NCBI GenBank assembly: GCA_964399495.1
Contig: CAYNQX010000015.1
Coordinates: forward strand, 7,380 to 71,379
DNA length: 64,000 bases
DNA from: an uncultured bacterium
GTDB taxonomy: Bacteria > Krumholzibacteriota > Krumholzibacteriia > JACNKJ01
Reading direction: 5' to 3'
A model generated the notes under the pieces. That model saw nothing but the letters and a program-made list of their open reading frames with translations. It was not told the origin of the DNA and did no database searches. A program made the translations under genes and the position numbers. Positions 5,721-30,701 of this stretch are shown here, in pieces. The first letter of the stretch is position 1, and each line of letters opens with the position of its first letter.

Positions 5721-6485
5721 ATGAAGATGACCACCTTCTTGCGCTCGCTCTTCGCGGTCGCACTCATCGGAGTTATGGCCTTCGGCAGTGTCGGCTGTCT
5801 CGGCGGCGATGACGACGACGGCGACGGCGACTCCGGTACCGCCTTCAGTGCCGAGACCGCCGTGACCATCGGTGTCCCCACCGCGACGCTGCAGAGCGAG
5901 TTCGTCATCAACTCCGCGATCGCGGCGGCCGGCGGGTTCGGCCCGGCGCGGGACGACGACTACTTCTGGGATGAGGACGAGCAGGCCTACTACCGTGATC
6001 TCGACGATGTCGACGGCGACACAACCTGGGAGGGGTTCATCCGCGCCCAGTTCTTCGACGACGGCACGCCCGTCGAGGACACCGATCTCGCGGACATGGC
6101 CAACATCATTCTCGACCTGAACATGCTCAGGAACGATAGCGGAGCAACCGTCGAGGCGGACTACGACTTCGACGTCGACGTCACGGGCATGGGCGGCGGC
6201 ACCCTCACGATCGAGGGCGGCGGCGGCTTCTCCTACGAAGCCACCCTCGCGGGCCTGTCCGCAGCCACGTACATGTCCACCTGGGAGACCGTGGCGCCCG
6301 ACCACGTCACCATGCCCGAGGGCGGCGGCTGCCCGACGGGTGAGATCCTGTACACGATGACTCCCTACACGATGAGCATTGTGTATGATGGCACACCCTC
6401 GGCGGACTACACCGTCTTCGACGGTTCCGGTGATCCGATCGCCAACGGCACCGGCACGATCTCGGTGGGGTGCAGCACGAACTAA
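5721..6485 (+). CDS. Acidic hypothetical lipoprotein (254 aa)
   Basis: AGGAGG RBS before ATG 5721; hydrophobic signal ending GSVGC followed by an Asp-rich linker. Confidence 0.75.
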   Translation: MKMTTFLRSLFAVALIGVMAFGSVGCLGGDDDDGDGDSGTAFSAETAVTIGVPTATLQSEFVINSAIAAAGGFGPARDDDYFWDEDEQAYYRDLDDVDGDTTWEGFIRAQFFDDGTPVEDTDLADMANIILDLNMLRNDSGATVEADYDFDVDVTGMGGGTLTIEGGGGFSYEATLAGLSAATYMSTWETVAPDHVTMPEGGGCPTGEILYTMTPYTMSIVYDGTPSADYTVFDGSGDPIANGTGTISVGCSTN

Positions 6486-6487
6486 AG

Positions 6488-6552
6488 GCTCCGCGAAGTT
6501 CCCCGCACGCTTCGCACGGACGAGAGGCGCTTTGCGGGGAACTTCGCTCCGC
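6488..6552 (+). repeat. REP-like hairpin unit, copy A
   Basis: GCTCCGC end, perfect 15-bp stem GCGAAGTTCCCCGCA/TGCGGGGAACTTCGC, loop CGCTTCGCACGGACGAGAGGCGCTT. Confidence 0.85.
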
Positions 6553-6590
6553 CGACAAACCGTCCCCCCGGGGGGACTCATAAAAACCAA

Positions 6591-6620
6591 AGACCCCCCG
6601 CCGAATCCGGCGGGGGGTCT
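6591..6620. terminator. Intrinsic terminator hairpin between convergent genes
   Basis: AGACCCCCCGCCG-AATC-CGGCGGGGGGTCT, with an A-rich tract to the left (U-tract on the minus strand). Confidence 0.75.
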
Positions 6621-6623
6621 TCT

Positions 6624-6700
6624 GCGAGGGAAGGGTTCTAAGGAGCGCCTCTGAGCCGAGTCTTCGAGGCGAAGTGAAGCGACGTGAACCCTGACCGAGC
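6624..6700 (-). repeat. REP-like unit, long-loop variant, copy B
   Basis: Minus strand GCTCGG..AGGGTTC..CGCTTC..CTCGAAGACTCG..GAGGCGCT..GAACCCT; shares the CGCTTC/GAGGCGCT core with copy A and CTCGAAGACTCG with copy F. Confidence 0.65.
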
Positions 6701-13521: not shown

Positions 13522-14067
13522 TTGCATCGACTCGCCACGCTCCTCTTGGCTCTGTTTCTCGTCGCCGACGCGCGGGCAGCCACCCTTCGCGTGCCCGGTG
13601 ACTTCCGCACGATTCAACCCGCCATAAACGCCGCCGCCGGCGGCGACACCGTGCGTGTGGCCCCCGGCATCTACCAGGGGCCCGGCAATCGCGATCTCCT
13701 GCTCGAAGGCAAGTCCATCGTCCTGGTCGGCGCCGGCCCCGGGGCGACCCTGATCGACTGCGAGGGGGCCGGCCGCGGCTTCTTCCTGGTCGACGCGGAC
13801 GCTGGCACCCTGCTGCGGGGCTTCACCGTGCTGAACGGACTCGCTCCCGAGGGCGATCTGCCGGGGAAGGGCGGCGGCGCGCTCGTTATCGGCGGGGCGC
13901 CGCGGTTCGAGCGCTGCCTGTTCCTGGGCGGGCGTGCGGATTTCGGAGGCGGATTGGCCGCCGAATGGGGCGCGCGGCTCGCGGTGCGGGACTGCTCGTT
14001 CCGCGACAACCGGGCCGGGATCGACGGCGACGACCTCCACCTGTTCGACGCCGAGCTCGTCCGATGA
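13522..14067 (+). CDS. Short secreted pectin-lyase-like (parallel beta-helix) protein
   Basis: Signal peptide; LRVPGDFRTIQPAINAAAGGDTVRVAPGIY and GFTVLNG motifs; TATAAT at about 13464; TTG start. Confidence 0.7.
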   Translation: MHRLATLLLALFLVADARAATLRVPGDFRTIQPAINAAAGGDTVRVAPGIYQGPGNRDLLLEGKSIVLVGAGPGATLIDCEGAGRGFFLVDADAGTLLRGFTVLNGLAPEGDLPGKGGGALVIGGAPRFERCLFLGGRADFGGGLAAEWGARLAVRDCSFRDNRAGIDGDDLHLFDAELVR

Positions 14068-14126
14068 GCCGGTCGACCCCTGTCCTTCGCCAGGGCGCTC
14101 TGCTACAATTCCGGCGGGAGGACACC

Positions 14127-14999
14127 ATGCGCCACACATCGAAACTCGTCGGATTGCTACTGCTGCTGATCCTGGCCGGCCCCGCCTGGGCCTGCTTTCC
14201 CGTGATGCTGTCGCTCGACACGGCCGGCGACTGCGCCGTGACCACGACGCCCTACGTGTCGAACACCCTTCAGCTCCGGGCCACCGTGCTCGCCGACCTG
14301 GACGGCGTGAGCAGCATCACCCTGAAGGCCGCCGACTGGCCCGGCAGCCCGGGATATCCCGAGGGTGAGATCTTCGAGGCCTGGTACGCGGACGATGTCG
14401 TGGGCGACATCGAGACCGCGCTCACCCTGAGCTGGGATCCCCCGCTCGCCATAGCGGCCGGCGAGGACCTGCTGCTGGGAGAGATGGAGGTGCTGTCCAT
14501 GGCCGAGAGCTGGCCGGGAACGGATGCGCCGCTGTCGTTCGACGGCAGCCTCGTCGACGCCAACGCCCAGGAGTTCGACGCCCTGCGCGCGAACTTCACC
14601 TTCAACTGCACGGGCGGCGACTGCGACTGCCACCCCACCGGCGGCCCGCTGAGCTGGCTGCTGCTGCGCGACCTCACGCCGCCGGCCGGCGATTCCGTGT
14701 CGGACACCTTCCCGCTGGCCTTCACCGTCGAGAGCCACGGCTGCCTGCCCGAGGAGCCGATGGAGTTCACGGGCCTGGTGCAGGTGGAGGGCGGCCCGCA
14801 GTTCGTGATCGGCGGCACCGGCGAGACGCCGCTGCAGTTCGGCATCCATGCGGGGCACGTGTCTCCCGGCGGCGAACTGGCGGTGGATATCCTGCTGGAG
14901 AACGGGGAGATCGTGCGGGAGGCGCGGGTGGTCTATGTGGTGGAGGGTAGCGTGGGTGTGGAGGGGTCGAGCTTTTCGGTGATCAAGTCGCTGTACTGA
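14127..14999 (+). CDS. Secreted Cys-containing hypothetical protein, paralog 1
   Basis: GGAGG RBS, signal peptide, C-terminus GVEGSSFSVIKSLY; similar to the proteins at 15890 and 16808. Confidence 0.78.
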   Translation: MRHTSKLVGLLLLLILAGPAWACFPVMLSLDTAGDCAVTTTPYVSNTLQLRATVLADLDGVSSITLKAADWPGSPGYPEGEIFEAWYADDVVGDIETALTLSWDPPLAIAAGEDLLLGEMEVLSMAESWPGTDAPLSFDGSLVDANAQEFDALRANFTFNCTGGDCDCHPTGGPLSWLLLRDLTPPAGDSVSDTFPLAFTVESHGCLPEEPMEFTGLVQVEGGPQFVIGGTGETPLQFGIHAGHVSPGGELAVDILLENGEIVREARVVYVVEGSVGVEGSSFSVIKSLY

Positions 15000-15889: not shown

Positions 15890-16753
15890 ATGTCATTCCG
15901 ACTTCTCGTGATCCTTCCCATCCTGGCACTGATCGCTCCGAGTTCGGCACGGAGCGATTGGATCCACATCTTCGGCGACATCAATGCTGCGCAGTGCGCA
16001 TCATCAGTGATTTCGTTCGAACCCGACACGATCTACTTCCATGCGGATCTCCCCTCTTGCCCCGATGGAATCCGAGGTCTCTCGTTTCGACTGCTGAACT
16101 CCCCGTTCGACGACACCCCAGGCGTTGTCATCACGAGCACCTGGAATTGCGATTCCGTGGTCGGGAGCCTCGCGGATCGCATCACGATGGTCTGGGATGA
16201 ACCCCTGCAGCCGGGTCTCTGGTCTTACTACCAGGCTCTCGGCACCGTCGAGATCATGTCCTACCTATCGAATTGGCCAGGGGTGAATCACAGCCTCAGC
16301 ATCGGCGAGATCGAGATCATCTGTGCGGATGATTCCGTCGTGCTCGGCTGGGATCCCATACCGTTCGCTTTCAATCGCACGGATGGAGTCGATTGCTGGG
16401 ACTGCGATCGATACGGACCCTTCAGTGCGATCTCCGAGCATTCGCCCGTACCGGGTTCGGAAGTATCGACGCCCTCCCAAGCAACGGTCCTCGCGAAGGG
16501 CTATCACGGGTGCGGACGACCTTTGCCCTTCACTTGCGAAATCCGGTGCAACGGCACGCTCGTGGCGATCACGGAGGGCTGGGGCGAGGAACTCGTCGAG
16601 TACGAGATCCCATCGGGTGAACCCGGGGAGCTGATTGCCGTCGAGAGCATGGTACAGATCGGCTGGAGGGAGTTCACGACCGAGTGGAGCTATGAGGTCG
16701 AGGCCACGGCTGCGCGTAAGCAATCGATCTCCGAATTCAGGTCCTTCTACTAG
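15890..16753 (+). CDS. Secreted Cys-containing hypothetical protein, paralog 2
   Basis: Signal peptide; CPDGIRGLSFRL, WNCDSVVG..ITMVWD; C-terminus QSISEFRSFY; lower GC than the flanks. Confidence 0.75.
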   Translation: MSFRLLVILPILALIAPSSARSDWIHIFGDINAAQCASSVISFEPDTIYFHADLPSCPDGIRGLSFRLLNSPFDDTPGVVITSTWNCDSVVGSLADRITMVWDEPLQPGLWSYYQALGTVEIMSYLSNWPGVNHSLSIGEIEIICADDSVVLGWDPIPFAFNRTDGVDCWDCDRYGPFSAISEHSPVPGSEVSTPSQATVLAKGYHGCGRPLPFTCEIRCNGTLVAITEGWGEELVEYEIPSGEPGELIAVESMVQIGWREFTTEWSYEVEATAARKQSISEFRSFY

Positions 16754-16807: not shown

Positions 16808-17758
16808 ATGCGATCCGCCATCTTTCTCGCGCTTCTTCTGCTCACCCTTCCATCGATTCTGTCGGCGCAAACTTCCGATGGTTTGCGGATGTTCCACCGG
16901 CGGGATTGCTATCTCGATCGTCTGCCCACCTTCACCACTGCCGAACTCGAGTTTTTGGCCGAGATCCCCGAATGCCCCAATGGAATCCTCTCGCTCTCCT
17001 TCCGAATCGCCGACTGGCCCTCGGCCTACCAGGTTCTGATCGTCGGTCAGACTTGGGATGCCGACGTCGTCGAGGGCGACCCGTTCTCAGGCCTGACGCT
17101 TCGATGGGACACCGCCAGGATGCCCGAAGTCCACTCCTGGCACGATCTCGGCGAGGTTCAGGCCATGGTAATGAACGTGGATCCGTTCTTCGATCCTCAC
17201 GTCGTGTACTGCGCCGAGGTCGTCGCGGAAGGCGCGGACGGCAGCCTACATTCCATCGATGGCCCACCCTTCATCCTGCTCTACGACGATAACTCGGGCG
17301 GCTATGGTTGCTGCATGGGTGACCAGTTTAACGGTCGGATTCTGAACATCGACCCGCCCGTGGAGAGCGCAATCGCCCTGCCGGACACCTGCGCCTTCGA
17401 TATTAGCTACCTGCAGTGCGATGAATGGCCGGCGGATTTCAGCTTTATGGTGTATCGGGATGGCGTCCTCGTGGACCAAGGAACGGACTTCGGAGAGAAG
17501 GGGATCCGTTTCCCGATCCTGGACACGAATCAGGACGGAATGGTCGAAGTGAGTGTCGGAATCACCAACGGTTTGGGACAGATTTGGACCTGGCAGTACT
17601 TCGTGGACGGCGTACCCGTCGAGAGCTCATCCGTATCGAAGGTCAAATCGCTCTACGAGACCCGCTACTCGAGTCCCCCCGGGGGAACACCCTCGCGAAC
17701 TAGCTTTCCGACTCCTGCCGCCGCTGAAAAAACAGCCGCAGGCTCAAAGAAAGACTAG
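16808..17758 (+). CDS. Secreted Cys-containing hypothetical protein, paralog 3 (probably extended by stop loss)
   Basis: Signal peptide; CPNGILSLSFRI, WDADVVEG..LTLRWD; the VESSSVSKVKSLY motif ends at 17656 but the frame runs 33 more codons into the convergent gene. Confidence 0.75.
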   Translation: MRSAIFLALLLLTLPSILSAQTSDGLRMFHRRDCYLDRLPTFTTAELEFLAEIPECPNGILSLSFRIADWPSAYQVLIVGQTWDADVVEGDPFSGLTLRWDTARMPEVHSWHDLGEVQAMVMNVDPFFDPHVVYCAEVVAEGADGSLHSIDGPPFILLYDDNSGGYGCCMGDQFNGRILNIDPPVESAIALPDTCAFDISYLQCDEWPADFSFMVYRDGVLVDQGTDFGEKGIRFPILDTNQDGMVEVSVGITNGLGQIWTWQYFVDGVPVESSSVSKVKSLYETRYSSPPGGTPSRTSFPTPAAAEKTAAGSKKD

Positions 17759-19898
17759 CCAGCTTCGTCAGCGCCGAATCGCCCCGGCTCGTCAGCACCA
17801 CCGGAATCCCGCAGCCGACGATGGCGCCGGCCGCGCTCAGCCCGCTCGAAACCGTGAGCGACTTGTAGACGCTGTTGCCCGAGTCGATGCCGGGCATTAT
17901 CAGGACGTCGGCGTTGCCCTGGATCTCCCCCCCAAAGCCCTTCTCCTCGGCGATGGCCGGGTCGACGGCCACGTCGAAACTCAAAGGCCCTTCCACCAGA
18001 CAGTCCGTGCGCTCCTCGTAGAGGGCCGCGATCTCGGCGGCCTCCACCGAGCTCTCGATGCGGGGGTTCACCTTTTCGATGGCGCTGATCACGGCCACCT
18101 TCGGCCGCGGCAGGTTGAGGCTGCGCGCCACGAAGAGCGCGTTCTCGAGGATGCGCTGCTTCGCGCGCTTGTCGGGCTCGATGTTGATGCCCGCGTCGCT
18201 GAGCAGCAGCAGCTTGCCGTCCTCGGGGCGATGGAACACCGCCACGTGGCTGAACAGCGCGCCCGGCTCCAGCCGGTCGTTGGCCTTGAGCCAGCGGAAG
18301 GTGGGCGCGAGGATCTCCTCGGTCTTCACCGAGCCCTTCATCAGCACCTGGCAGCGGCCCTGCTCGTACAGATCGAGGCAGTCGGCCACGGGATCTTCGG
18401 AGGGCACGAGCTCGAAGTCCTCGTCGGGCAGGCGCAGGCCGACTTCGGCCGCCAGCTTGCGGGTGCGCGCTTCGTCCCCCACCAGCAGGAAGCGGGCGAT
18501 CTTGTACTCGCCCTCCTCGGTGGCGCGGCGGGCGGCCTCGAGCGCGTCGTCGTTGTCGGAGCCCGCGATGGCGATGGTCGGACGGAAGAAGCGGTTCACC
18601 TGGCTCCGCGTCGCCTGGATCAGCTCCTCCAGGTTGCGGATCGGGCTGCCCGAGCGACGGCGCAGGATCGGCTTCTTGAAGACCGGCTGGTCGATGCGCA
18701 GGTCCTCGTGGCGCCGGTAGGCGTGGAGCATGTCGCGCTCCTCTTCATACTGACGAAGGCACGAGGGATCGAGCAGCGCGCGGGCCATGCCGGCCGCCAG
18801 GCTCTCCTGCTCGGCGCTGCCCGGCACGCGCACGATCGGCAGCAACCCGCCCACCTTGCGCTCGATCAGTTCCACCAGCTCCTCGCTGCGCGACAGGCCG
18901 CCTGTGAGCACGACGTAGTCCGGCCGGCCCCAGCCGGCGGCGCAGGAGAGCACGCCCTCGGCGATCTTCTGCGCGAAGAAGCGCAGCAGCAGGTCGATCT
19001 TGGCCGCCTGCTCCTGGGTGGCGCCGTGCTCGCGGAAGTCGAGCAGGGTCTTGAAGTCGTTGGTGCCGGCCAGCGCCAGCAGGCCGCCGTCCTTGAACAC
19101 GCCGCGGTGCAGCTCGTCGAGGCCGACGCGGTGGTCCTGGAGGGAGAGGATGAGGTCGTGCACCGGCAGCGCGCCGCTGCGGTTCATCGAGGGCAGGCCG
19201 CTGAAGGCGTTGATGACCCGCACGGCCTTGCCGCGGTGGTGGCGCAGCAGCGAGATGCCGCCGCCCAGGTGGGCGCTGACCACGCTGGCCTCGTCCGGGT
19301 CGATGCCGAACTCCCAGGCGCTCAGGCGCACGACGGCGCGGTGGTTGAGGTAGTGCGCGCTGCTGCCGTCGGTCTTGAAGGCGGGCAGGCCGGTCATGCG
19401 GCTCTCGATCTCGACCTCGTCGATGACCGGCGGATCCGTGATGGTGATGGGGATGTCCCTGTCCCCCATGTCGCCGAGGTCCTTGAGGGCCTGGGCGATC
19501 GGCACGGCCATGTTGGAGGCGTGGCGCAGGCGCGGATTGGCGAGATCCTCGAGCAGGGCCTCGCTGATGGGATAGGTGCCGCCGGGCACCGGGCGCAGCA
19601 GGCCGCCGCGGGCCGCGATGCCGTCGAGGGCGTGCAGGTCGATGCCCTCGTCGGCCAGCCAGCGCAGGATCAGCCCCGCGCGCTCCTCGGCGGTGTCCTC
19701 CGCGGCCGGGTCGAGATGCACCTCGAAGTCCGAGTGCTTCTCCAGGCCCTCGAAGTAGGAGACCTTCGTGGTGGTGGAGCCCGGATTGATCACCAGGATG
19801 CGATAGCCCTCCTCGGCCAGACGCGGGGCCAGTTCGTTGCCGAGGAGGCGCCGGAACAGCTCCAGGGGGGGCATCTTGCGCAGGTGGAGGGTCTTCAT
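17700..19898 (-). CDS. buk: Butyrate kinase - phosphate butyryltransferase fusion (732 aa)
   Basis: Buk motifs ILVINPGSTTTK, DPPVIDE, AHLGGGIS, GTND, LTGGL; then Ptb/Pta motifs LMKG, SDAGINIEP, EKVNP, EGPLSFD, GNSVYK, VVLTSR in one frame. Confidence 0.9.
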   Translation of the reverse strand: MKTLHLRKMPPLELFRRLLGNELAPRLAEEGYRILVINPGSTTTKVSYFEGLEKHSDFEVHLDPAAEDTAEERAGLILRWLADEGIDLHALDGIAARGGLLRPVPGGTYPISEALLEDLANPRLRHASNMAVPIAQALKDLGDMGDRDIPITITDPPVIDEVEIESRMTGLPAFKTDGSSAHYLNHRAVVRLSAWEFGIDPDEASVVSAHLGGGISLLRHHRGKAVRVINAFSGLPSMNRSGALPVHDLILSLQDHRVGLDELHRGVFKDGGLLALAGTNDFKTLLDFREHGATQEQAAKIDLLLRFFAQKIAEGVLSCAAGWGRPDYVVLTGGLSRSEELVELIERKVGGLLPIVRVPGSAEQESLAAGMARALLDPSCLRQYEEERDMLHAYRRHEDLRIDQPVFKKPILRRRSGSPIRNLEELIQATRSQVNRFFRPTIAIAGSDNDDALEAARRATEEGEYKIARFLLVGDEARTRKLAAEVGLRLPDEDFELVPSEDPVADCLDLYEQGRCQVLMKGSVKTEEILAPTFRWLKANDRLEPGALFSHVAVFHRPEDGKLLLLSDAGINIEPDKRAKQRILENALFVARSLNLPRPKVAVISAIEKVNPRIESSVEAAEIAALYEERTDCLVEGPLSFDVAVDPAIAEEKGFGGEIQGNADVLIMPGIDSGNSVYKSLTVSSGLSAAGAIVGCGIPVVLTSRGDSALTKLASLSLSLRLFFQRRQESES

Positions 19899-19940
19899 GC
19901 CGACAAGGTACTCAGCCCGGTTCAGCAGGCAAGCCCAAAG

Positions 19941-20005
19941 GCTCCGCGAATGCCCCCGGACGCTTCGCACGGACGTGAGGCGCTATCCGGGGGCATTCGC
20001 TCCGC
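19941..20005 (+). repeat. REP-like hairpin unit, copy C
   Basis: Perfect 15-bp stem GCGAATGCCCCCGGA/TCCGGGGGCATTCGC; loop CGCTTCGCACGGACGTGAGGCGCTA. Confidence 0.85.
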
Positions 20006-20049
20006 CGGATTGGCGAGGCCGTCCCGTCGAGTCCCCCCGGGAGGACATG

Positions 20050-20076
20050 AAAAACCCCCGCCAGATCGGCGGGGGC
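20050..20076 (-). terminator. Intrinsic terminator downstream of C25 protease 1
   Basis: AAAAACCCCCGCC-AGATC-GGCGGGGG hairpin with a U-tract on the minus strand. Confidence 0.65.
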
Positions 20077-20092
20077 TTCGTTCTTCGAGCCC

Positions 20093-20157
20093 GCGGAGCA
20101 AACTCTCTCGGAAAGCGCCTCACGTCCGTGCGAAGCGTCCGAGAGAGTTTGCGGAGC
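20093..20157 (-). repeat. REP-like hairpin unit, copy D (inverted relative to C)
   Basis: Minus strand GCTCCGC, stem GCAAACTCTCTCGGA/TCCGAGAGAGTTTGC, same conserved loop. Confidence 0.85.
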
Positions 20158-20158
20158 A

Positions 20159-23100
20159 CTATTTCAGGAGCACGGCCTTGCCGGCCAGTCTCGTGTCGTC
20201 GGTGACCAACCGGTAGAAGTACACACCGGAACCGACCTGCGAACCGCGGTCGTCGCGGCCGTCCCAGTCGACGGCGCTGGCGCCGGCGGGCATCGTCGCG
20301 CCGCTCAGCAGCGTGCGGACCCTGCGGCCCTGCGTGTCGTAGACCGTCAGCTCCACCATCGCCGCCGCGGGCAGCTCGAAGCGGAGCGTGGTCTTGGGGT
20401 TGAAGGGGTTGGGCGAGGCCGCCAGCAGGCGCGCCCGCGTGGGCAGGGCCTCGGGCAGTTCGGTCATGGTGGGGTCGGCGAAGCCGGCGAGTATGAACTC
20501 GTCGACGCCGGCCTCCACCACCGAGCCGCTGCCCTCGTCCGCCGCGATGAAGCGGAACTGCACGGTGCTGGTGAGCTCGATGTAGTCGTCGAGCAGGAAG
20601 CTCACGAGCTGCCAGCTACGTTCGCTCGCGCTCGTGTTCTCCAGGTCCACCCAGTTCACGCCGTCGCCCGTCACCTGCACCTGCCAGATGTCGCTGCCCG
20701 GGTTGTTGCCGGTGTCGTTGGTGTACCAGCGACGGTAGCTCGCCGTCACCGCCAGCGAGGTCGACAGGTCGAAGACCGGGCTCATCAGCGTGGTCTTGCC
20801 GCCGTCCACGTCGTCGGCGCCCTGGGCGCCCGTCTCGGCGTTGCCGGTGATGAAGCAGAGCGTGCCGTCGGTGGACGCGTCGTCCTCGGGCTGCACCTGC
20901 TCGGCACCCTCAATTACACCCACCGGGTCCACCCGCACCCAGAGGCCGGTGGTGGCGTCGTCACCCGTGTCCCCCACCGTCCAGCCGGCGGCGACTTCCA
21001 TGTCCTCGTCCTCCACCGTCACGGCCATGAGCACCCAGAAGCTGTAGTACTCGTTCATGAGCATGGGGTCGCGGCTCGCGTTGCCGGCGATATCCTCGGA
21101 CTCGATCCAGTAGCGCACCATCGTGTTGACCCCCTGGCCGGGAATCTCCGCGCGGCAGAGGCCGGTGAGCGAGTTCACGAGGATCAGGGGAATCTCGACG
21201 CCCGGGCCGCCGTCCAGCGCGTAGTAGCAGCGCGAGCTGGTGATGGTGGAGAAGTCGTTGATGAAGGTCTCGACCACGTAGGGTCCCATGGCGTCGTCCG
21301 TGTGGGGCAGCACCGTCGTGCTCTCGATGTAGGGGCCGAGGATGTCGTCGAGCGCGAAGTTTTGCGTGGTCGTGATGTCCTCGATCACCGAGACGCCCGG
21401 GATCGACACCGGCGCGAAGCTCTCGTGCTCGGCCGTCACCGTGTAGACGCCCTCCTGCACGGGACCGGTGTAGTTGCCGGCGCCGTCGCTGAGGAAGGTC
21501 TGACCGGTCTCCACGATACGGACGCTCACGCCCGCCACCGGCGTGCCGCCGTTGCTCACGTTGCTCACGTATCCCTGAAGGGTGCCGGCCTGGAGCACGG
21601 TCACCAGCACGTCCTCCACGTGGGTGAGACGGTTGAAGCCGCTCACCGTGAGTGTGGCGTACTGACCGGGATCGGGCAGGTCGCCTTCGATGGCGATCTC
21701 CGCCAGGCCCGTGCCGTCCGCGAAGGCGGAACCGACGAACTGGCCGCCGTTGCTCAGCGCCACGAGGTTGCCCGGCTCCGTGTTCACCGAGAAGGTGGGC
21801 AGCAACGGATCGATGAGGCCGATATGGCTGGCGCTCACCGTCGCCGGCGAGTCCGTGCGCACGCGCAGACTCGGATCGCCGAAGATGGTCCAGAACTTCA
21901 TCTCGTTCTCGCCGCTGGAGCCGTACTCGTCGACCATCTGGCAGGCGCCGTTCACGCTGAGGCCGCCGAAGGTACGCTTCGCACCCGACACGAGCAGGTC
22001 GATGGTCTCGTCCTGCGCGCACATGGGCGGCGCCCAGCTCATGCTGATGGTCGAACCGTAGAATCCGATGGCGCCCGTGGGCTCGCCGCCGTTGGTCGCG
22101 CGCATCCAGGCCTCGCCGAAGCAGGTGCCGCTCTGGAACTCGCCCGTGTTGCAGGCCACGCTCGAGATGAAGGGGAGCATGTTGTCGTTGCTGAGCGCGT
22201 TCACGTGGGTGTTACTGTAGCCCGTGGAGCCCCAGCTCGTCAGCGAGCCGTGACCGCAGTAGTTGATGATGCTGCGGCCGTCGTTCAGGGCGTTCGTCAC
22301 CATGGCGGCCGTGCCGCCGTTGGTGTCGTAGATCTGGTCGACCAGCGTGTAGGTGAAGGCCAGGAGCTTGCCGCGGATCACGTCCATGTGCTCCCAGTCC
22401 GCCTCGCCGTCGTCGCCGATGCCCGAGCCCTCGGCCGAGGCGATGCCGACGCCCTGGTGATACCAGGCCGCGCCGGACTGCGGATCGCGCTCGTACTCCA
22501 CGCTGCGTTCGACCTGGGTCACCACCTGGGCGGCCGTCTCGGCGGAGAAGCGGCCCACGAACACTTCGGGGTAGGAATCGGCGCCGGCCAGGAAGCCGTA
22601 GCTCGGGTCCGACGCGCCGCCGTTGTTGTAGTAGGGAATCTGCGCGACGTCGCCCACCAGCACCACGAAGCACAGGCCCTCGGTGTCGTAGAGGTTCTGG
22701 ATGTAGGCCTTGATCTGTGTCGCCGTGGCGCCGACCTCGCTCACGTTCACGTGAGTGGTCGGAATGCCCATCTGATTCTTCCAGTCCACGAAGGGCTGGG
22801 CCGCCGAGTAGAAGGCGTCGTAGCTGATCACCAGCATCGACCCGACCTCGGGAATGCTCACGTAGCGGTCGCCCATCGCGCCCGCGCTGTTCAGGTAATG
22901 GGTCGAGTAGATCGACTCGAACTCCTGCACCGGCGCGGCCGGCTTGTGTGTGAGCACGTTCACGCGGCCGGGACCGTCGGCGAACACCTCCACCGTGAGG
23001 CTCGTCGTCACCTCGAGGGTGCTCGTGGCCGGGTGGTAGCGGAAGGGGTTCATCGCCAGGACGACGCCGCGCGTATCGCGCATGATGTAGGGCGTGTCCA

Positions 23101-23566
23101 GGTTCGCCGTGCGCTCGGGATACCACGCGTCGCCGGAGTAGAACGGATCGAAGGCGTAGCTCACCATCTCCGGGTCGACGTTGCGCAAAATGTTGCCCTT
23201 GCTGGGCGCCACGTCGAGCCCTGCGAAGGAGCGGGTCTCACTGTCGATGACGCGCAGGGTCATGGCCGCGTCGTCGGGGATGCGCAGCGATTCGCGGATC
23301 GTCGGCAGGGCCGGCAGGCCGCGCTCCATGTGCAGGGCGCGGGAGCCGAGCGTCACGGCCTGGTAGCCGCGGCCGTCGATCTCGACGTCGTTCAGATCGA
23401 AGTGGTGGATCTCCAGGCGCAGCAGGGTGCGTTCGGGAGTCGACTGGAGCACTTGAATGTCGAAAGCATCCGCGTTCGCGCTCAGCTCGATCCTCTGTCC
23501 GGCGAAGGCCGGCGAAGTGGAGAGCAGGAGCAGCGCCGCGAGGAGGAGCAGCGGCAGTCTCTTCAT
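20159..23566 (-). CDS. C25 (gingipain-like) cysteine peptidase 1 with propeptide, C25_C, carboxypeptidase-regulatory-like and further Ig/jelly-roll domains and FlgD-Ig/T9SS-type C-terminal domain (1135 aa)
   Basis: Signal peptide; propeptide GLPALPTIRESL..PSKG; FVDWKNQMG, VFVGRFS; catalytic His in NYCGHGS and Cys in SVACNTG; tail PNPFNPKT...WDGRDDRG...SGVYFY...LLK. Confidence 0.92.
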   Translation of the reverse strand: MKRLPLLLLAALLLLSTSPAFAGQRIELSANADAFDIQVLQSTPERTLLRLEIHHFDLNDVEIDGRGYQAVTLGSRALHMERGLPALPTIRESLRIPDDAAMTLRVIDSETRSFAGLDVAPSKGNILRNVDPEMVSYAFDPFYSGDAWYPERTANLDTPYIMRDTRGVVLAMNPFRYHPATSTLEVTTSLTVEVFADGPGRVNVLTHKPAAPVQEFESIYSTHYLNSAGAMGDRYVSIPEVGSMLVISYDAFYSAAQPFVDWKNQMGIPTTHVNVSEVGATATQIKAYIQNLYDTEGLCFVVLVGDVAQIPYYNNGGASDPSYGFLAGADSYPEVFVGRFSAETAAQVVTQVERSVEYERDPQSGAAWYHQGVGIASAEGSGIGDDGEADWEHMDVIRGKLLAFTYTLVDQIYDTNGGTAAMVTNALNDGRSIINYCGHGSLTSWGSTGYSNTHVNALSNDNMLPFISSVACNTGEFQSGTCFGEAWMRATNGGEPTGAIGFYGSTISMSWAPPMCAQDETIDLLVSGAKRTFGGLSVNGACQMVDEYGSSGENEMKFWTIFGDPSLRVRTDSPATVSASHIGLIDPLLPTFSVNTEPGNLVALSNGGQFVGSAFADGTGLAEIAIEGDLPDPGQYATLTVSGFNRLTHVEDVLVTVLQAGTLQGYVSNVSNGGTPVAGVSVRIVETGQTFLSDGAGNYTGPVQEGVYTVTAEHESFAPVSIPGVSVIEDITTTQNFALDDILGPYIESTTVLPHTDDAMGPYVVETFINDFSTITSSRCYYALDGGPGVEIPLILVNSLTGLCRAEIPGQGVNTMVRYWIESEDIAGNASRDPMLMNEYYSFWVLMAVTVEDEDMEVAAGWTVGDTGDDATTGLWVRVDPVGVIEGAEQVQPEDDASTDGTLCFITGNAETGAQGADDVDGGKTTLMSPVFDLSTSLAVTASYRRWYTNDTGNNPGSDIWQVQVTGDGVNWVDLENTSASERSWQLVSFLLDDYIELTSTVQFRFIAADEGSGSVVEAGVDEFILAGFADPTMTELPEALPTRARLLAASPNPFNPKTTLRFELPAAAMVELTVYDTQGRRVRTLLSGATMPAGASAVDWDGRDDRGSQVGSGVYFYRLVTDDTRLAGKAVLLK

Positions 23567-23668: not shown

Positions 23669-23735
23669 GCTCCGCAAACTCTCCCGAACGCTTCACACGC
23701 AGACGTGAGGCGCTTTTCGGGAGAGTTTGCTCCGC
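23669..23735 (+). repeat. REP-like hairpin unit, copy E
   Basis: Perfect 15-bp stem GCAAACTCTCCCGAA/TTCGGGAGAGTTTGC; loop CGCTTCACACGCAGACGTGAGGCGCTT. Confidence 0.85.
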
Positions 23736-23763
23736 CGGGTGCGAATCCACCCGGGGGGACACA

Positions 23764-23792
23764 AAAAACCCCCACCGGAATCGGCGGGGGTT
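23764..23792 (-). terminator. Intrinsic terminator downstream of C25 protease 2
   Basis: AAAAAACCCCCACCG-GAAT-CGGCGGGGGTT hairpin with a U-tract on the minus strand. Confidence 0.65.
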
Positions 23793-23805
23793 CAATTTCG
23801 AGCTA

Positions 23806-23880
23806 GCGGAGGTGAGGGTCACTCGGGCGCCTCGGAGCGAGTCTTCGAGCGAGGCGAAGCCCGATGGCCCTCACCGGAGC
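23806..23880 (-). repeat. REP-like unit, long-loop variant, copy F
   Basis: Minus strand GCTCCG-GTGAGGGCCATCGG-GCTTCG..CTCGAAGACTCG..GAGGCGC-CCGAGTGACCCTCAC-CTCCGC. Confidence 0.7.
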
Positions 23881-23881
23881 G

Positions 23882-26158
23882 CTACTTCAGGAGCATCATC
23901 TTCTTAGTCTCGCTGAGCTCGTCGCTCTGGAGCTTGTAGAAGTAGATGCCGCTGCCGACGCTGTGGCCGGCGTCATCCTTGCCGTTCCAGACCACGCTGT
24001 GCTGGCCGGCGGCCATGTCGCCCGACTGCAGCGTGCGGACGTGCTGGCCGGTGGCGCTGAATACGTCCAGGGCAACCTCACCCGCGTTCGGCAGGGCGAA
24101 GTTGATCGTGGTCTTGGGGTTGAAGGGGTTCGGGAAGTTCTGACCCAGCGCGAAGGCGCTCGGAGCGAACTCGTCCACCGGCGTCAGGTCGGCGATCACC
24201 TCGACCGAGGCCAGGTAGGTGACCCGGTTGAAGTTGCTCACGACCACGTCGAGGTCGGCCTCGACGAGGCTGCGGGAGAAGGTCACCACGGCCGTGCCGC
24301 TGCCGTTCGCCACCGCGGAGCCGACGAACTCGCCGTCCTGGCTCAGGCCCACCAGGGCGCCGGCCTCGGACTGCACGGTGAAGCTGCTCGCGTCGAGCTG
24401 GATCGAGGCGTCGTGGCTCACGGCCATGGAGCCGGGCGCCGCGGTGCGGACGCGCATGCTCGGGTCGCCGAAGATCGTCCAGTTCTTGAACTCGGTGCGG
24501 CCGTTGCCGCCGTACTCGTCCATCATCTGGCAGGAGCCGTTGAAGAAGAGACCGCCGATGGTGCGCTTCTCCTCGGCCACGAGCAGGTCGGTGATCTCGT
24601 CCTGGCCGCACATGGGCGGCGCCCACTGCTGGTTCACGGTGGAGGCGTACATGGCGACGGCGCCCGAGGGCTCGCCGCCGTTGCTGGCGCGCAGCCAGGC
24701 CTCGGCGAAGCAGGTCGCGCTCGGGAAGTTGCCGTTCACGCAGGCCACCGACACGATGAAGGGCAGCATGTTGTCGTTGGTGAGCTGGTTCACGTTGGTG
24801 TTGTTGAAGCCGCTCGTCGACCAGGCCTGGGTGCTGCCGTGGCCGGTGTAGTTCATGAAGCCGCGACCCTCGTTCACCGCGTTGCGCACGGCAGTGGCGG
24901 AAACGCCGGTGTTCGGGTAGAAGCGATCCACCTCGGTGTAGGTGAAGCCGAGCAGATCCAGACGGATGTTGTCCTGGTGCTGCCAGTCGGCCTCGCCGTC
25001 GTCCCCGTAACCGGCGCCCTCGCTGGAGCCGATGCCGGAGCCCTTGGCGAACCAGTCGGAGCCGGCGACCGCGTCGCGCTCGTACTCGATCGCCTTGGTC
25101 ACCTGGTTGGTGACCTCGCTCGTGTTGGTGGCGCTCATGCGGCCCACGAAGGCCTCGGGGTAGTCGTCGCTGCCGGCCAGGAGGCCCAGCATCGGATCGG
25201 ACGCGCCGCCGTCGTTCATGTTGTAGGGAACCTGGGGGCCGTCGCCGATGAGCAGTACGTAGCAGACGCCCTCGGTGTCGTAGGCGTTCTGCACGTAGCT
25301 CTTGAGCTGGCCGCCGGTGGAGCCGGCGGTGCTCACGGGAACCATGGTCGTGGGCACGCCCATCTGGTTCTTCCAGTCCACCAGGGGCTGCGTGGCGCCC
25401 ATGAAGGCGTCGTAGCAGATCACCAGCATGCTGCCGCCCTCGGGAACGCTCGCGTAGCGGTCGCCGGCCGCGGACGCGGCGCCGTAGTTCAGATAGTGAC
25501 GGTCGAAGATGCGCTCGAACTCGTCCACGCGCTTGGCGGGACGCTGCGTGAGCACGTTCACCTGGCCGGCGCCCGCATCGAACACCTCGACGGTGATCGA
25601 GGTGTAGACGCGCAGGGTCCGGCTGGCCGGGTTGTAGCGGAAGGGATTCACCTCGACCACCATGCCGCGGGTATCGCGCATGATGTAGGGCGCGTCCAGG
25701 GCGGCCACGTCGGCCGGGTACCACTGGTCGCCGCCGTAGAAGGCGTCGAAGCTGTGGCGCACCAGCGCGGGATCCACGTTGCGGGTGAGGCTGCCCTTGG
25801 AGGGCGCCACGTCGATGCCCGAGAGCTCGACGTAATCCGCGTCGACGATCCTCACGCCCATGGCGCGGTCGTCGGGAATCACGATGGATTCGCGCAGGGT
25901 GGGCAGCGCCGGCAGGCCGAGCTCCATGCTCTTGGCGCGGCGGCCCAGGGTGACCGTGCTGTACTGGGCGCCGTCGATGAAGACGGACTCCAGCATGAAG
26001 TCGTTCACCTGATAGTGGATAACGGTGTTGTGCAGGTCGGACTGCAGGACACGGATGTCGTACTGGCTGTCGCTCTTCTGGAGTACCACTTGCTGACCGG
26101 CAAAGGCCGAACCGGCAACAAGAGACAGCATAGCCAGGAGCAGAAACAGTTTTCTCAT
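23882..26158 (-). CDS. C25 (gingipain-like) cysteine peptidase 2 with propeptide, C25_C and FlgD-Ig/T9SS-type C-terminal domain (758 aa)
   Basis: Signal peptide; GLPALPTLRES, LVDWKNQMG, AFVGRMS; NYTGHGS and SVACVNG catalytic motifs; tail QNFPNPFNPKT...SGIYFYKL...KKMMLLK. Confidence 0.92.
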   Translation of the reverse strand: MRKLFLLLAMLSLVAGSAFAGQQVVLQKSDSQYDIRVLQSDLHNTVIHYQVNDFMLESVFIDGAQYSTVTLGRRAKSMELGLPALPTLRESIVIPDDRAMGVRIVDADYVELSGIDVAPSKGSLTRNVDPALVRHSFDAFYGGDQWYPADVAALDAPYIMRDTRGMVVEVNPFRYNPASRTLRVYTSITVEVFDAGAGQVNVLTQRPAKRVDEFERIFDRHYLNYGAASAAGDRYASVPEGGSMLVICYDAFMGATQPLVDWKNQMGVPTTMVPVSTAGSTGGQLKSYVQNAYDTEGVCYVLLIGDGPQVPYNMNDGGASDPMLGLLAGSDDYPEAFVGRMSATNTSEVTNQVTKAIEYERDAVAGSDWFAKGSGIGSSEGAGYGDDGEADWQHQDNIRLDLLGFTYTEVDRFYPNTGVSATAVRNAVNEGRGFMNYTGHGSTQAWSTSGFNNTNVNQLTNDNMLPFIVSVACVNGNFPSATCFAEAWLRASNGGEPSGAVAMYASTVNQQWAPPMCGQDEITDLLVAEEKRTIGGLFFNGSCQMMDEYGGNGRTEFKNWTIFGDPSMRVRTAAPGSMAVSHDASIQLDASSFTVQSEAGALVGLSQDGEFVGSAVANGSGTAVVTFSRSLVEADLDVVVSNFNRVTYLASVEVIADLTPVDEFAPSAFALGQNFPNPFNPKTTINFALPNAGEVALDVFSATGQHVRTLQSGDMAAGQHSVVWNGKDDAGHSVGSGIYFYKLQSDELSETKKMMLLK

Positions 26159-26295
26159 TCCATCCCCCTTCCAAAGGGCTGAGAAAGAGTAGGTCGACCG
26201 AAATTCTGTAAGTGGAAACAGACAGAGATCAGCGGGTCTATGGGGAAAGCTCAATTATACCAGATCGCGCGCGATGGAACAACGGCATTACGAGG

Positions 26296-26330
26296 AAGCC
26301 AACTCCCTCATAAGGAAGGAGTTGGCTTCT
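26296..26330. terminator. Hairpin terminator downstream of the 26371 gene
   Basis: GAAGCCAACTCC-N11-GGAGTTGGCTTC perfect 12-bp stem. Confidence 0.6.
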
Positions 26331-27375: not shown

Positions 27376-28437
27376 CTACCGAAGCAGCACCAGCTTCTCC
27401 GAACTCGAAACGCCCCCACTCACCAGACGCAGCAGGTAGAGCCCGCTCGGCAGGGTGTGCCCCGCTTCGTCCGTACCGTCCCATGTGAACTCGTGCCGAC
27501 CCTCCCCCAGTAGCCCCGACTGGAACACTCGCAGCAAGCGACCGTCGACGCCATGCACACTCAGGCGCGCTCGGCCCGCGGCCGGCATGGTCACGGGGAT
27601 CACGGTGTGCGGATTGAAGGGGTTCGGATGGGCGGCGAGCAGCCGCGGCTCCGCGATCGGCAGCTCTCCTGCCGCCACGGCGCCGAGTTCCGTCACGCCG
27701 ACCCCCGCGCACTGCAGCGCCAGGTGATCGTCGGGCGTGTCCGGGGCGTCGAGCTGCAGCCAGGCGATTACGCGGCAGTGATCCGGATCGAAGTTGAAGG
27801 GTCCCTCCGGGTCTGGCAGCACCGCGGACAGCAGGACCGAAGCTGTCTGGGGCGGCGCTCCGGCGAGATCCACCACGGTCCCCGCCCCGTCGGGCAGCAT
27901 GTCGAAGAGCTGGTGGTCGTGCCAGTCGACGCCGTTGATCGGGTAGTAGATCTCCGACTCGGTGAGGGCCACGTAGAGCCTGACGAGTCCGGGCGGCGGC
28001 TCCGTATCGGTGACCGCGGTCACCTGCAGTGTCAGCTCGCGCGACGAGGGATCCCAGGTGCCCCGGATCGACAGCGTGGCCGGCGAGGGCCAGCCCTTGT
28101 GCTGGTCGTATCGCCAGGCGAGGGTGGAATGATCCCCCATCCACAGGCCATCCATGCGGAAGGTCGGCGTGGCCAGGACGTCGTAGAACTCCTGGCGCAG
28201 CAGCACGTCTTCCGGGTCGATCAGGTTGAAGGGATCGAGGGGATAGGTCCAGCCGACGTGGTACTCCACGGCCTCCACGTCCGCATGGGCGGCAGCGAAC
28301 TCCGCCAGCGCCGTCTCCGACGACGGGCAGGTGTGTCAGGCGGTATGGGAGAACAGCTCCACGAACACGTTGCGCTCCGCCGCCTTCGCGGAGATCGACG
28401 CGGCGAGCAGGGCCGCGACGATCAGGACACGACGCAT
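27376..28437 (-). CDS. Candidate secreted selenoprotein: Omp28-like thioredoxin fold with UxxC and FlgD-Ig/T9SS-type C-terminal domain (353 aa)
   Basis: ORFs 28336-28533 and 27376-28278 are in the same frame, separated only by TGA at 28338-28336: signal peptide-AERNVFVELFSHTA-U-HTCPSSETAL...EYHVGW; tail HPNPFNPHT...WDGTDEAG..PSGLY...KLVLLR. Confidence 0.8.
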
Positions 28438-28584
28438 GATGAGCCCCTTTCGTCCCCCACAGTCTAGACGGCGACGGCGGGCAGGTCTAGCGATGGCCCC
28501 GATCCCGGCTCGAGCCCGGGCAGGCGCCGTCACCCGATGGGCGGGAAAAACGCGCCATCAGGTCGATTTCGACCACGATTGCCG

Positions 28585-28613
28585 TTGTCCAAACCCCCGG
28601 AAAGGAGTATCTT
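28585..28613 (+). promoter_or_regulatory. Sigma70-like promoter of the gap operon
   Basis: TTGTCC-N17-TATCTT, 70 nt upstream of ATG 28684. Confidence 0.55.
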
Positions 28614-28683
28614 CGCCGCAGCAAGGCAACATTGTTCGGTCGCCGAACAATCGTCCCTTTCCACTCAGCCAGAGAGGACAACC

Positions 28684-30701
<2,018 letters not shown>

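Follow-up and report, generated by a model that had tools for sequence, protein, structure and literature searches.

The window, by which we mean the whole 64-kb stretch of DNA analysed here, belongs, to judge from the names given to homologues and to a syntenic contig, to an uncultured Krumholzibacteria genome, has a G+C content of 67% and carries ordinary chromosomal genes, including feoAB, a sodA-like gene, two GAPDH genes, metH, and genes for efflux pumps and two-component systems. Three loci within it, at 6488-6699, 19941-20157 and 23669-23880, have one layout, which on the + strand runs from a forward hairpin unit through a GC palindrome containing CCCGGG(G/A)GGAC and a terminator hairpin to an inverted unit. 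The first-pass annotation had described three loci of about 215 bp with a common layout, and the sequence at all three is as it described. Independent JGI and ENA assemblies of one population give all three without a single base difference, and they are therefore real sequence rather than an assembly artefact.

Layout of the three loci

At locus 1, unit 1a (S-type; 6488-6554, + strand; 95 bits) consists of a GCTCCGC foot, a perfect 15-bp stem GC+GAAGTTCCCCGCA, the core CGCTTCGCACGGACGAGAGGCGCT and a GCTCCGCC foot. A perfect 16-bp GC palindrome, GTCCCCCCGGGGGGAC (6562-6577), lies between it and the intrinsic terminator that serves gene 6700-9060 (6579-6622, minus strand; stem GAAGACCCCCCGCCG/CGGCGGGGGGTCTT, then a minus-strand T-run), which is followed by unit 1b (L-type; 6624-6699, minus strand), with the long core CGCTTCACTTCGCCTCGAAGACTCGGCTCAGAGGCGCT and a degenerate 7-bp stem. 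Locus 2 begins with unit 2a (S-type; 19941-20006, + strand; stem GC+GAATGCCCCCGGA; 99.9 bits; -46.4 kcal/mol, z -6.3) and continues with a near-palindrome, GTCCCCCCGGGAGGAC (20031-20046), the intrinsic terminator of C25 peptidase gene b (20050-20078, minus strand; CCCCCGCC-AGATC-GGCGGGGG, with TTTTT on the minus strand) and unit 2b (S-type; 20093-20157, minus strand; stem GC+AAACTCTCTCGGA; 96.5 bits). Locus 3 comprises unit 3a (S-type; 23669-23736, + strand; stem GC+AAACTCTCCCGAA), whose core is altered by an inserted CA and a G>A substitution, a small hairpin (23734-23760; CCGGGTG-CGAATC-CACCCGG) ending in the common motif CCCGGGGGGAC, the intrinsic terminator of C25 peptidase gene a (23760-23793; GAACCCCCGCCGATTCCGGTGGGGGTTTTTT on the minus strand) and unit 3b (L-type; 23807-23880, minus strand; stem GTGAGGGCCATCGGG/CCCGAGTGACCCTCAC). 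The linker between the inverted units measures 69-86 nt at all three window loci. Inverted ends occur at locus 2 only, where the two arms of 68 nt are 82% complementary, and no target-site duplication is present at any boundary of the three loci, as the first-pass annotation had also noted.

A scan of the 64 kb for perfect hairpins returned perfect 15-bp stems at 6493-6547, 19946-20000, 20098-20152 and 23674-23730; besides these, the 64 kb contain no more than six perfect hairpins with a stem of at least 11 bp, the locus-1 terminator among them. The pattern CGCTTC-N(10-26)-GAGGCGC occurs 5 times against 0.34 expected, a number that none of 100 shuffles reached, and CCGGGRGGAC occurs 7 times against 0.9 expected, with this palindrome also standing alone at a further convergent gene end (17665-17682). 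Such repetition beyond chance, combined with the identity across assemblies, supports reading the units as a repeat.

Anatomy and folding of the hairpin unit

Each unit is about 65 nt long (range 65-76 nt for S and L units together). The S unit reads, in order, GCTCC, [GC+N13], the core CGCTTC(G/A)CACG(CA)GACG(T/A)GAGGCGCT, 1-3 unpaired bases, [N13'+GC] and TCCGC(C/G)G. Two core subtypes, S (24-26 nt) and L (about 38 nt), have the frame CGCTTC...GAGGCGCT in common. In the L units, 1b and 3b, the CGCTTC...GAGGCGC frame is kept round a longer centre, ACTTCGCCTCGAAGACTCGGCTCA, and the stems are imperfect; both contain CTCGAAGACTCG, which bears out the earlier description of two long-loop variants with a common sequence. 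The 7-nt GCTCCGC feet of one unit are direct rather than inverted repeats, and a short motif, GCTC(C)GC / TCGCTC, recurs at the feet and within the cores. While core and feet are nearly invariant among copies, the stems differ at 7 of 13 variable positions; the feet themselves are invariant and the stem is constantly 15 bp in all five S units known, four in the window and a fifth outside it.

The units form stem-loops of -40 to -46 kcal/mol with z-scores of -4.3 to -6.3. S units fold 4-6 kcal/mol better on the sense strand because two G·U pairs lie in the invariant inner helix, a preference that would suit a function as RNA; against such a function, the antisense strand gives the better fold in the case of L unit 3b. 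Moreover, all pairs in the variable stems are of Watson-Crick type, G·U being confined to the invariant inner helix, and the mismatches, which are few, read A·C in the sense strand. Stems of this kind fit a palindrome maintained at the DNA level.

Position relative to stop codons and terminators

All seven units identified are extragenic, lying between called genes, and five of the seven begin 0-2 nt past a stop codon in sense orientation with a terminator downstream. Unit 1a starts 2 nt past the TAA of a + strand lipoprotein-like gene (5721-6485). The inverted units are sense to minus-strand genes and begin 0-1 nt past their stop codons: unit 1b directly follows the TAG of a gene for a 786-aa secreted protein (6700-9060) whose relatives are named 'choice-of-anchor J domain-containing', and units 2b and 3b each start 1 nt past the TAG of a C25 (gingipain-family) peptidase gene, b (20159-23566) and a (23882-26158), respectively. 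The terminator T-run is on the minus strand at all three loci, which indicates that the terminators serve the minus-strand genes ending at 6700, 20159 and 23882.

The fifth S unit lies in the right flank of the window (L152:827-891, at about window coordinate 71,700, 7.7 kb outside the window). It stands alone, in sense orientation and 1 nt past the TAA that ends an aldehyde dehydrogenase gene, and the terminator that comes after it is unrelated in sequence. Its stem, AAATGCCCCCGGA, is one compensated pair away from that of 2a and bridges the 2a and 2b stem types. The occurrence of an S unit at an unrelated gene with a different terminator supports the repeat reading; that the seven units, found in about 80 kb of the source genome, all fall in two clusters counts against a dispersed repeat.

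For the five units placed between a stop codon and a terminator, this position would imply transcription. Relative to the genes on either side, units 2a and 3a are antisense, and they appear to lie between a terminator and promoter-like sequence of the next gene, as judged by eye and from conservation with relatives: 2a is upstream of promoter-like sequence (by eye) for buk-ptb, and 3a is upstream of a conserved promoter-like box, CTGATAGAAT, of C25 gene b. Since both are antisense and outside the likely transcripts, they are unexplained by a 3'UTR role. A unit-internal promoter for the downstream gene was rejected for C25 gene b, whose promoter-like box is situated outside unit 3a, on the side of the gene, and is found even in relatives without the unit. 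A + strand sRNA gene made up of the forward unit, palindrome and terminator was likewise discarded, as there is no promoter-like site upstream and the + strand T-run is weak.

All three genes preceding the inverted units encode a FlgD_ig / T9SS-type C-terminal domain: the 786-aa protein and C25 peptidase b carry FlgD_ig, and C25 peptidase a carries FlgD_ig/Por_Secre_tail. Across the roughly 80 kb, a unit is present behind 3 of 4 FlgD_ig genes and behind 2 of about 55 other genes (p=0.001, the gene count being approximate). This association raises the question of whether the unit is a dedicated cis-regulatory 3'-UTR RNA hairpin, bound by a protein or an sRNA, that marks the mRNAs of T9SS-type secreted proteases and is not mobile. 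The apical core would then be the recognition site and the stem a spacer, and the 2a, 3a and aldehyde dehydrogenase copies would be recent by-products. Besides the gene association, the sense-strand folding of the S units favors such a role, but the window also contains a FlgD_ig gene without a unit (27376-28278), and among the five S units 2a and 3a are antisense and outside transcripts and another follows a gene for a cytoplasmic enzyme. We regard a dedicated cis-regulatory hairpin, the main rival to the repeat reading, as unlikely, and the evidence from stems and relatives given below bears on it further. Two specific forms of RNA function were set aside. For the stems as guides or antisense to local targets, the 80 kb contain no second match even when up to 2 mismatches are allowed. 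The similarity of the apical CAC-GGAC-GTG to a CsrA site suggested a GGA loop of the CsrA type, an idea given up since unit 3a reads CAGA at this point.

Covariation of the stems

In the five S units the outer helix is 100% paired, with no unpaired cell and no G·U cell. Seven of the 15 stem pairs are changed on both sides (13 cells), and one-sided changes number zero. None of 500 shuffles reached the covariation score, and shifted registers drop to 33-57% paired; the sample is five related sequences, so that these values are indicative and give no formal probability. The covarying stems reported by the first-pass annotation are thus borne out, as is the perfection of the four 15-bp stems in the window, but its impression that these four are all different needs qualification. 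Rather than being unrelated, they form a graded series in which 1a resembles 2a and 2b resembles 3a. Every stem difference among units 1a, 2a, 2b and 3a is compensated, with 3a differing from 2b by two compensated changes. Between 2a and 2b, 10 of 26 arm positions differ compared with 0 of 24 core positions (p=0.0007), and this far greater divergence of the arms than of the cores supports the repeat reading.

What keeps the stems perfect? The first-pass annotation proposed that structure rather than sequence is selected. The covariation on which it relied is strong and is patterned like that of a structured RNA, which would suit a cis-regulatory hairpin, but selection is only one reading of it. 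Template switching during replication within a hairpin yields perfect compensated stems with no need for selection (PMC8794818), and perfect compensated stems that lack G·U intermediates match this unselected, intra-hairpin process. A deletion of the template-switch type is present at locus 2. Pairing that is exclusively Watson-Crick in the variable stems argues against sense-strand RNA.

Hairpins in related genomes

Syntenic loci were obtained through orthologues of the C25 peptidases, with amino acid identities of 89% (L140), 72% (L142 and L155), 70% (L151), 63% (L149) and 60% (L156). Sampling through these orthologues biases the set towards the same genes. The genes around the loci are syntenic in the relatives.

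In the closest relative, L140, an L unit and a terminator directly follow the stop codon at both loci, and neither the palindrome nor a second, forward unit is present at either. The first-pass annotation had treated the 215-bp composite as one element. Since L140 holds only the gene-proximal unit and terminator at both orthologous loci, the composite is not the unit of inheritance. Furthermore, the L140 module behind C25b is almost that found in the window behind C25a, the two having the stem GT(A/G)AGGGCCATCGGG and the CTCCGCTAGC tail in common and a similar terminator, whereas in the window C25b is followed by an S unit and in L140 C25a is followed by a different L stem. The coding 3' ends themselves are orthologous (85-89% identity versus 67-70% across paralogues). 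A near-identical module at a non-orthologous site, despite orthologous coding 3' ends, indicates that the modules move independently of the genes. At locus 1, the L142/L155 lineage has no unit. That units are dispensable and exchangeable between relatives (L140, L142/L155) supports the repeat reading.

Four further lineages in the range of 60-89% identity have a long sense hairpin 0-8 nt past the stop codon of orthologous or paralogous C25 and M14 peptidase genes. In L142/L155 the stem has 11-14 paired positions, with one mismatch allowed, and the core is TCGYTCCGGGGGGACCAAGTCKCTCG; in L149, where the hairpin occurs behind four protease genes, the stem is a perfect 18-21 bp and the core CTCACTAGAGCTTCGCAAATCGTTC; in L156 the stem is a perfect 17 bp and the core TGCGCTCACGCTTCGCAGTTCGCTC; and in L151 the stem is 9+9 bp. 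A T-run follows the homologous hairpin in L149 and L156. The 8-mer GCTTCGCA is common to the S core, the L149 hairpins (3 of 3) and the L156 hairpins (2 of 2), and occurs nowhere else in those two loci. The recurrence of hairpins at the same sites down to 60% amino acid identity, with GCTTCGCA shared by L149 and L156, is suggestive of a conserved cis-element rather than of a selfish repeat. This pattern counts against the repeat reading and is an argument for the cis-regulatory alternative introduced above. It is offset by the biased sample of relatives, by the replacement of the core with different sequence in L142/L155 and L151, and by two FlgD_ig genes in L156 that have no unit.

The comparison also bears on whether the units are simply double-stranded DNA sites with neither an RNA role nor mobility of their own. 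They could be cruciforms or sites at which a nucleoid or topology protein binds, in the way that IHF and gyrase bind BIMEs, or they could be duplicates of terminator regions produced by gene conversion between paralogous 3' flanks. In favor of such readings are the recurrence of the GCTC(C)GC / TCGCTC motif at feet and in cores, the enrichment of the CCGGGRGGAC palindrome and its solitary occurrence at a convergent gene end, and the near-identical inverted units 2b and 3a on either side of C25 gene b, in a pair of tandem paralogues. However, at 65-70% identity the paralogous coding 3' ends are a poor substrate for gene conversion, unit 1a and the aldehyde dehydrogenase copy are 7-50 kb away from the C25 pair and follow unrelated genes, and the strict spacing of 0-2 nt from the stop codon has no obvious rationale at the level of double-stranded DNA. 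An origin of this sort strikes us as improbable.

Instability, database searches and candidate enzymes

In L112 and L114, which are independent assemblies, locus 2 has lost 152 bp that include the terminator, and the 5' arm and core of 2a are fused to TTCCGAGAGAGTTT-GCGGAGC with an extra T. The junction would be the product expected of two successive template switches across the inverted units, a class of mechanism that has been described previously (PMC7202029, PMC8794818). A De Bruijn artefact is unlikely, as one of the required overlaps is only 15 nt and the junction is present in both JGI and ENA assemblies; chimeric reads may be its source. The deletion is the sole structural polymorphism seen. 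In several assemblies contig ends fall inside units, as expected of repeated or hairpin-forming sequence.

A covariance model of the S unit detected no additional copy in 196 kb (window, flanks and relatives). Genome contigs searched with the loose pattern GCTCCGC-N-CGCTTC-N-GAGGCGCT gave chance matches in high-GC genomes, none with paired arms among the matches listed, and a core-specific pattern had 0 matches in a viral collection and 20 in a metagenome collection (without the source genome), all 20 lacking paired flanking arms and apparently due to chance. A protein search with the FlgD_ig C-terminal domain for paralogues in the same genome returned short fragments of other organisms only. 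Rfam gave 0 matches at the gathering score for the window and five loci, with sub-threshold chance matches appearing only at E<=1. The first-pass annotation had let its proposal stand or fall with further copies, with covariation and with the Rfam comparison; on these points a copy was found outside the window, the stems covary, and no family matched the window or the five loci.

Could the hairpin be the single-stranded DNA substrate of a hairpin-specific enzyme, such as an HUH/Y1 transposase (for example RAYT) or another recombinase, and the whole a REPIN-like non-autonomous element? For recognition it would rely on the apical core and the GCTCC/GGAG feet, and the 15-bp stem would set the fixed distance at which it cuts. 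Invariant feet and a constant stem length in all five S units would be expected of such a substrate, and the same is suggested by the GGAG that the opposite strand carries at the foot, by the locus-2 doublet, REPIN-like with its arms of 68 nt, by Watson-Crick-only pairing, and by modules that are present or absent and non-orthologously placed among close relatives. Across the 30 proteins of the window and the Pfam-annotated gene tables for flanks and relatives, about 165 kb in all or about 2% of a genome, there is no Y1_Tnp/RAYT, transposase or integrase, and the RAYT/TnpA(Y1) gene flanked by units for which the first-pass annotation had suggested looking was not seen in that sequence. Nor is there a GTAG, a target-site duplication or a recurring cleavage dinucleotide at the units. 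In addition, simple copy-out/paste-in would not give stems that differ between copies, and the junction of the 152-bp deletion is of the template-switch type rather than a precise excision. Taken together, these observations make a dedicated hairpin-cutting enzyme quite unlikely. The lack of a transposase or RAYT gene in the window, flanks and relatives examined, like the lack of target-site duplications, also counts against the more general repeat reading.

Discussion

The anatomy, positions and covariation of the units, together with their presence, absence and exchange between relatives, are best read as those of a new relative of the E. coli REP/BIME repeats, by analogy, and not as a new kind of system. 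More specifically, we judge it about an even call that the hairpin is a lineage-specific, REP/BIME-like extragenic palindromic repeat that acts as a 3'UTR hairpin. To judge from gene context, its home position would be the first element of the 3'UTR, with enrichment behind secreted-protease genes.

REPs are extragenic, palindromic, repeated and paired into BIMEs (PMC3479197, PMC12306157), and those of E. coli are 14-40 nt long, have a consensus motif, occur in many copies and are usually transcribed (PMC12306157). Like the REP/BIME repeats of E. coli and other Proteobacteria, the unit described here is a short extragenic 3'UTR hairpin near a stop codon, occurs singly or in inverted pairs with a motif-bearing linker, varies in presence between related genomes and has a purine-rich tetranucleotide at its foot, here GGAG and on the opposite strand. 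It is, however, about twice as long (65-76 nt), has 7-nt direct-repeat feet in place of a single 5' GTAG, is accompanied by no RAYT gene in the sequence examined, and in its paired form holds the gene's own terminator in the linker. The E. coli TnpA-REP enzyme requires specific stem bases and a mismatch (PMC3479197).

In classical REPs the stem is conserved, with mismatches, and the loop varies. Here the stem is perfect and variable and the loop is conserved, and this reversal counts against the repeat reading. The label of REP/REPIN-like repeat given by the first-pass annotation is accordingly apt for the BIME-like layout, the extragenic position and the hairpin, and inapt where the defining features of REP/RAYT systems are concerned (GTAG, stem bases and, in the sequence examined, a Y1 transposase). 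Of the two tetramers that it invoked, GGAG is found at the foot on the opposite strand and GTAG is absent from the units, whose feet read GCTCCGC in sense and GCGGAGC in antisense.

Other known repeats and hairpins share individual features. As in Pseudomonas REPINs, the inverted doublet at locus 2 can fold into one long hairpin, but loci 1 and 3 pair an S with an L unit and L140 has single units only, so that the doublet is not the replicating entity here. Correia elements of Neisseria, ERIC, RUP and BOX are likewise intergenic repeats of 100-200 bp near gene ends with inverted ends, and Correia elements and other MITE-like repeats can serve as terminators or RNA-processing sites; unlike these, the present loci lack target-site duplications, have inverted ends at locus 2 alone, and are mosaics whose parts occur independently. 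Integron attC sites are hairpins placed right after a gene end, with conserved structure and much variable sequence, but attC conserves the stem base (R''/R' boxes) and varies the tip, the reverse of what is seen here, and there are no RYYYAAC/GTTRRRY boxes, no extrahelical bases, no integrase gene in the window and no cassettes, the genes being syntenic and chromosomal. Intrinsic terminators are also GC-rich hairpins past a stop codon; the window unit differs in having no T-run, in being followed by a separate canonical terminator, and in its far larger loop of 24-38 nt.

How would such a repeat act and spread? The unit would be transcribed as the first 3'UTR element, upstream of the gene's intrinsic terminator, and a hairpin as stable as this one would block 3'->5' decay of the upstream message. 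Placed so near the stop codon, it could also interfere with the terminating ribosome, by analogy with E. coli REPs no more than 15 nt from a stop codon, for which lowered translation is reported in the passage of PMC12306157 that cites Liang et al. 2015. The core and feet, rather than the stem, would be read by a recognising or copying protein. Units and unit-terminator modules would be copied or exchanged between sites at the DNA level, composites arising where a second module (S unit and GC palindrome) sits inverted beyond the terminator, and the stems may stay perfect through intra-hairpin template switching, through selection for pairing, or through the two combined.

The evidence on whether RNA or DNA is the functional form points both ways. 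Position, orientation and the folding of the S units speak for sense RNA; Watson-Crick-only stems, A·C mismatches, the folding of 3b and the antisense placement of 2a and 3a speak against it. Were the RNA side to prevail, the hairpin could be a previously undescribed 3'-end signal of Krumholzibacteria, a post-stop tag on the mRNAs of T9SS-type secreted proteases whose GCUUCGCA-containing core is read by a dedicated RNA-binding factor, with the dispersed S copies being recent spill-over. That factor would co-ordinate the stability, translation termination or localisation of protease mRNAs. We consider a signal of this kind rather doubtful, and retain the REP/BIME-like repeat as the working interpretation.

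To our knowledge, research on extragenic palindromic repeats has dealt almost solely with Proteobacteria, where the stem is conserved and a RAYT transposase is the reader, and the Krumholzibacteria are a candidate phylum without cultured members. The logic of the element described here is inverted relative to a classical REP in that tip and feet are fixed, the stem is perfect and constant in length but free in sequence, and the unit all but abuts the stop codon. If the element is abundant genome-wide, it would provide a natural experiment on whether hairpin perfection reflects selection or template switching, a candidate for a new mode of recognition by a hairpin-binding enzyme or RNA-binding protein, and a practical explanation for the recurrent contig breaks in these metagenome-assembled genomes. 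If instead it is confined to secreted-protease genes, it would be a candidate for a new class of cis-regulatory RNA.

Deletion at locus 2 and contig ends

Independent assemblies L112 and L114 carry a 152-bp deletion haplotype of locus 2, the composite of hairpin unit, GC palindrome, terminator and inverted unit, in which the equivalent of window 19984-20136 is missing: both units are cut to half, and nothing remains of the palindrome or the terminator. The junction fits a double template switch. Contigs from several assemblers (L113-L116, L118, L153, L154 and the 3′ end of L140) end inside or right beside units or their terminators; ahead of another gene, the L140 3′ end falls within what looks like one more unit with a GCGGAGC foot.

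Palindrome and hairpins outside the composites

The motif CCGGGRGGAC is enriched in the window, with 7 occurrences versus 0.9 expected. A GC palindrome of the composite type, GTCCCCCCGGGGGAAC, stands solitary and without hairpin units at 17665-17682, where the end of gene 16808-17758 converges with that of buk-ptb (17700-19898), a fusion of a butyrate/acetate-kinase-like and a phosphotransacylase (PTA_PTB) gene. Gene 16808-17758 is the third of three paralogous hypothetical proteins (with 13965-14999 and 15890-16753), none of which has a Pfam match. The second and third have a signal-peptide-like N-terminus; the first ends in ...KSLY and the second in ...RSFY, while the third has no stop after SLY and extends ~33 codons further, and this read-on overlaps the buk-ptb 3′ end. 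At the other end of buk-ptb, a TACCTT box lies merely 6 nt ahead of the ATG, a distance that would suit a leaderless transcript. Two tandem GAPDH paralogues (28537-29706 and about 29700-30701) are kept together in every relative fetched.

Upstream of the start of the C25 peptidase gene C25a, a 12-bp perfect hairpin, GAAGCCAACTCC...GGAGTTGGCTTC (26295-26329), is followed by a conserved CCCCATTAT.CCGTTGTTTCTTC. The hairpin is kept in relatives, with equivalents near L140:1975-2015 and L142:9800-9840, the latter with a compensated change (GCCAAGTC/GACTTGGC), and may serve C25a as a leader or operator element. Other relatives contain perfect 17-21-bp hairpins (L149:9716-9795, L149:12594-12672 and L156:4800-4866) that enclose a conserved ~25-nt loop, with a T-run directly behind them; should these hairpins be the terminators, a loop of this size would be unusually large.

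Leader of short-core units and the upstream stop codon

In units of the short-core subtype, GCTCCGC is preceded by a common short 5′ leader, (T/C)AAA(G) (window 6483-6494 and 19934-19947; L152:889-897, minus strand). In two of them, 1a at locus 1 and u4 behind an aldehyde dehydrogenase gene on L152, the leader overlaps the TAA stop of the upstream gene, and for this reason the hairpin unit might supply its own stop codon.
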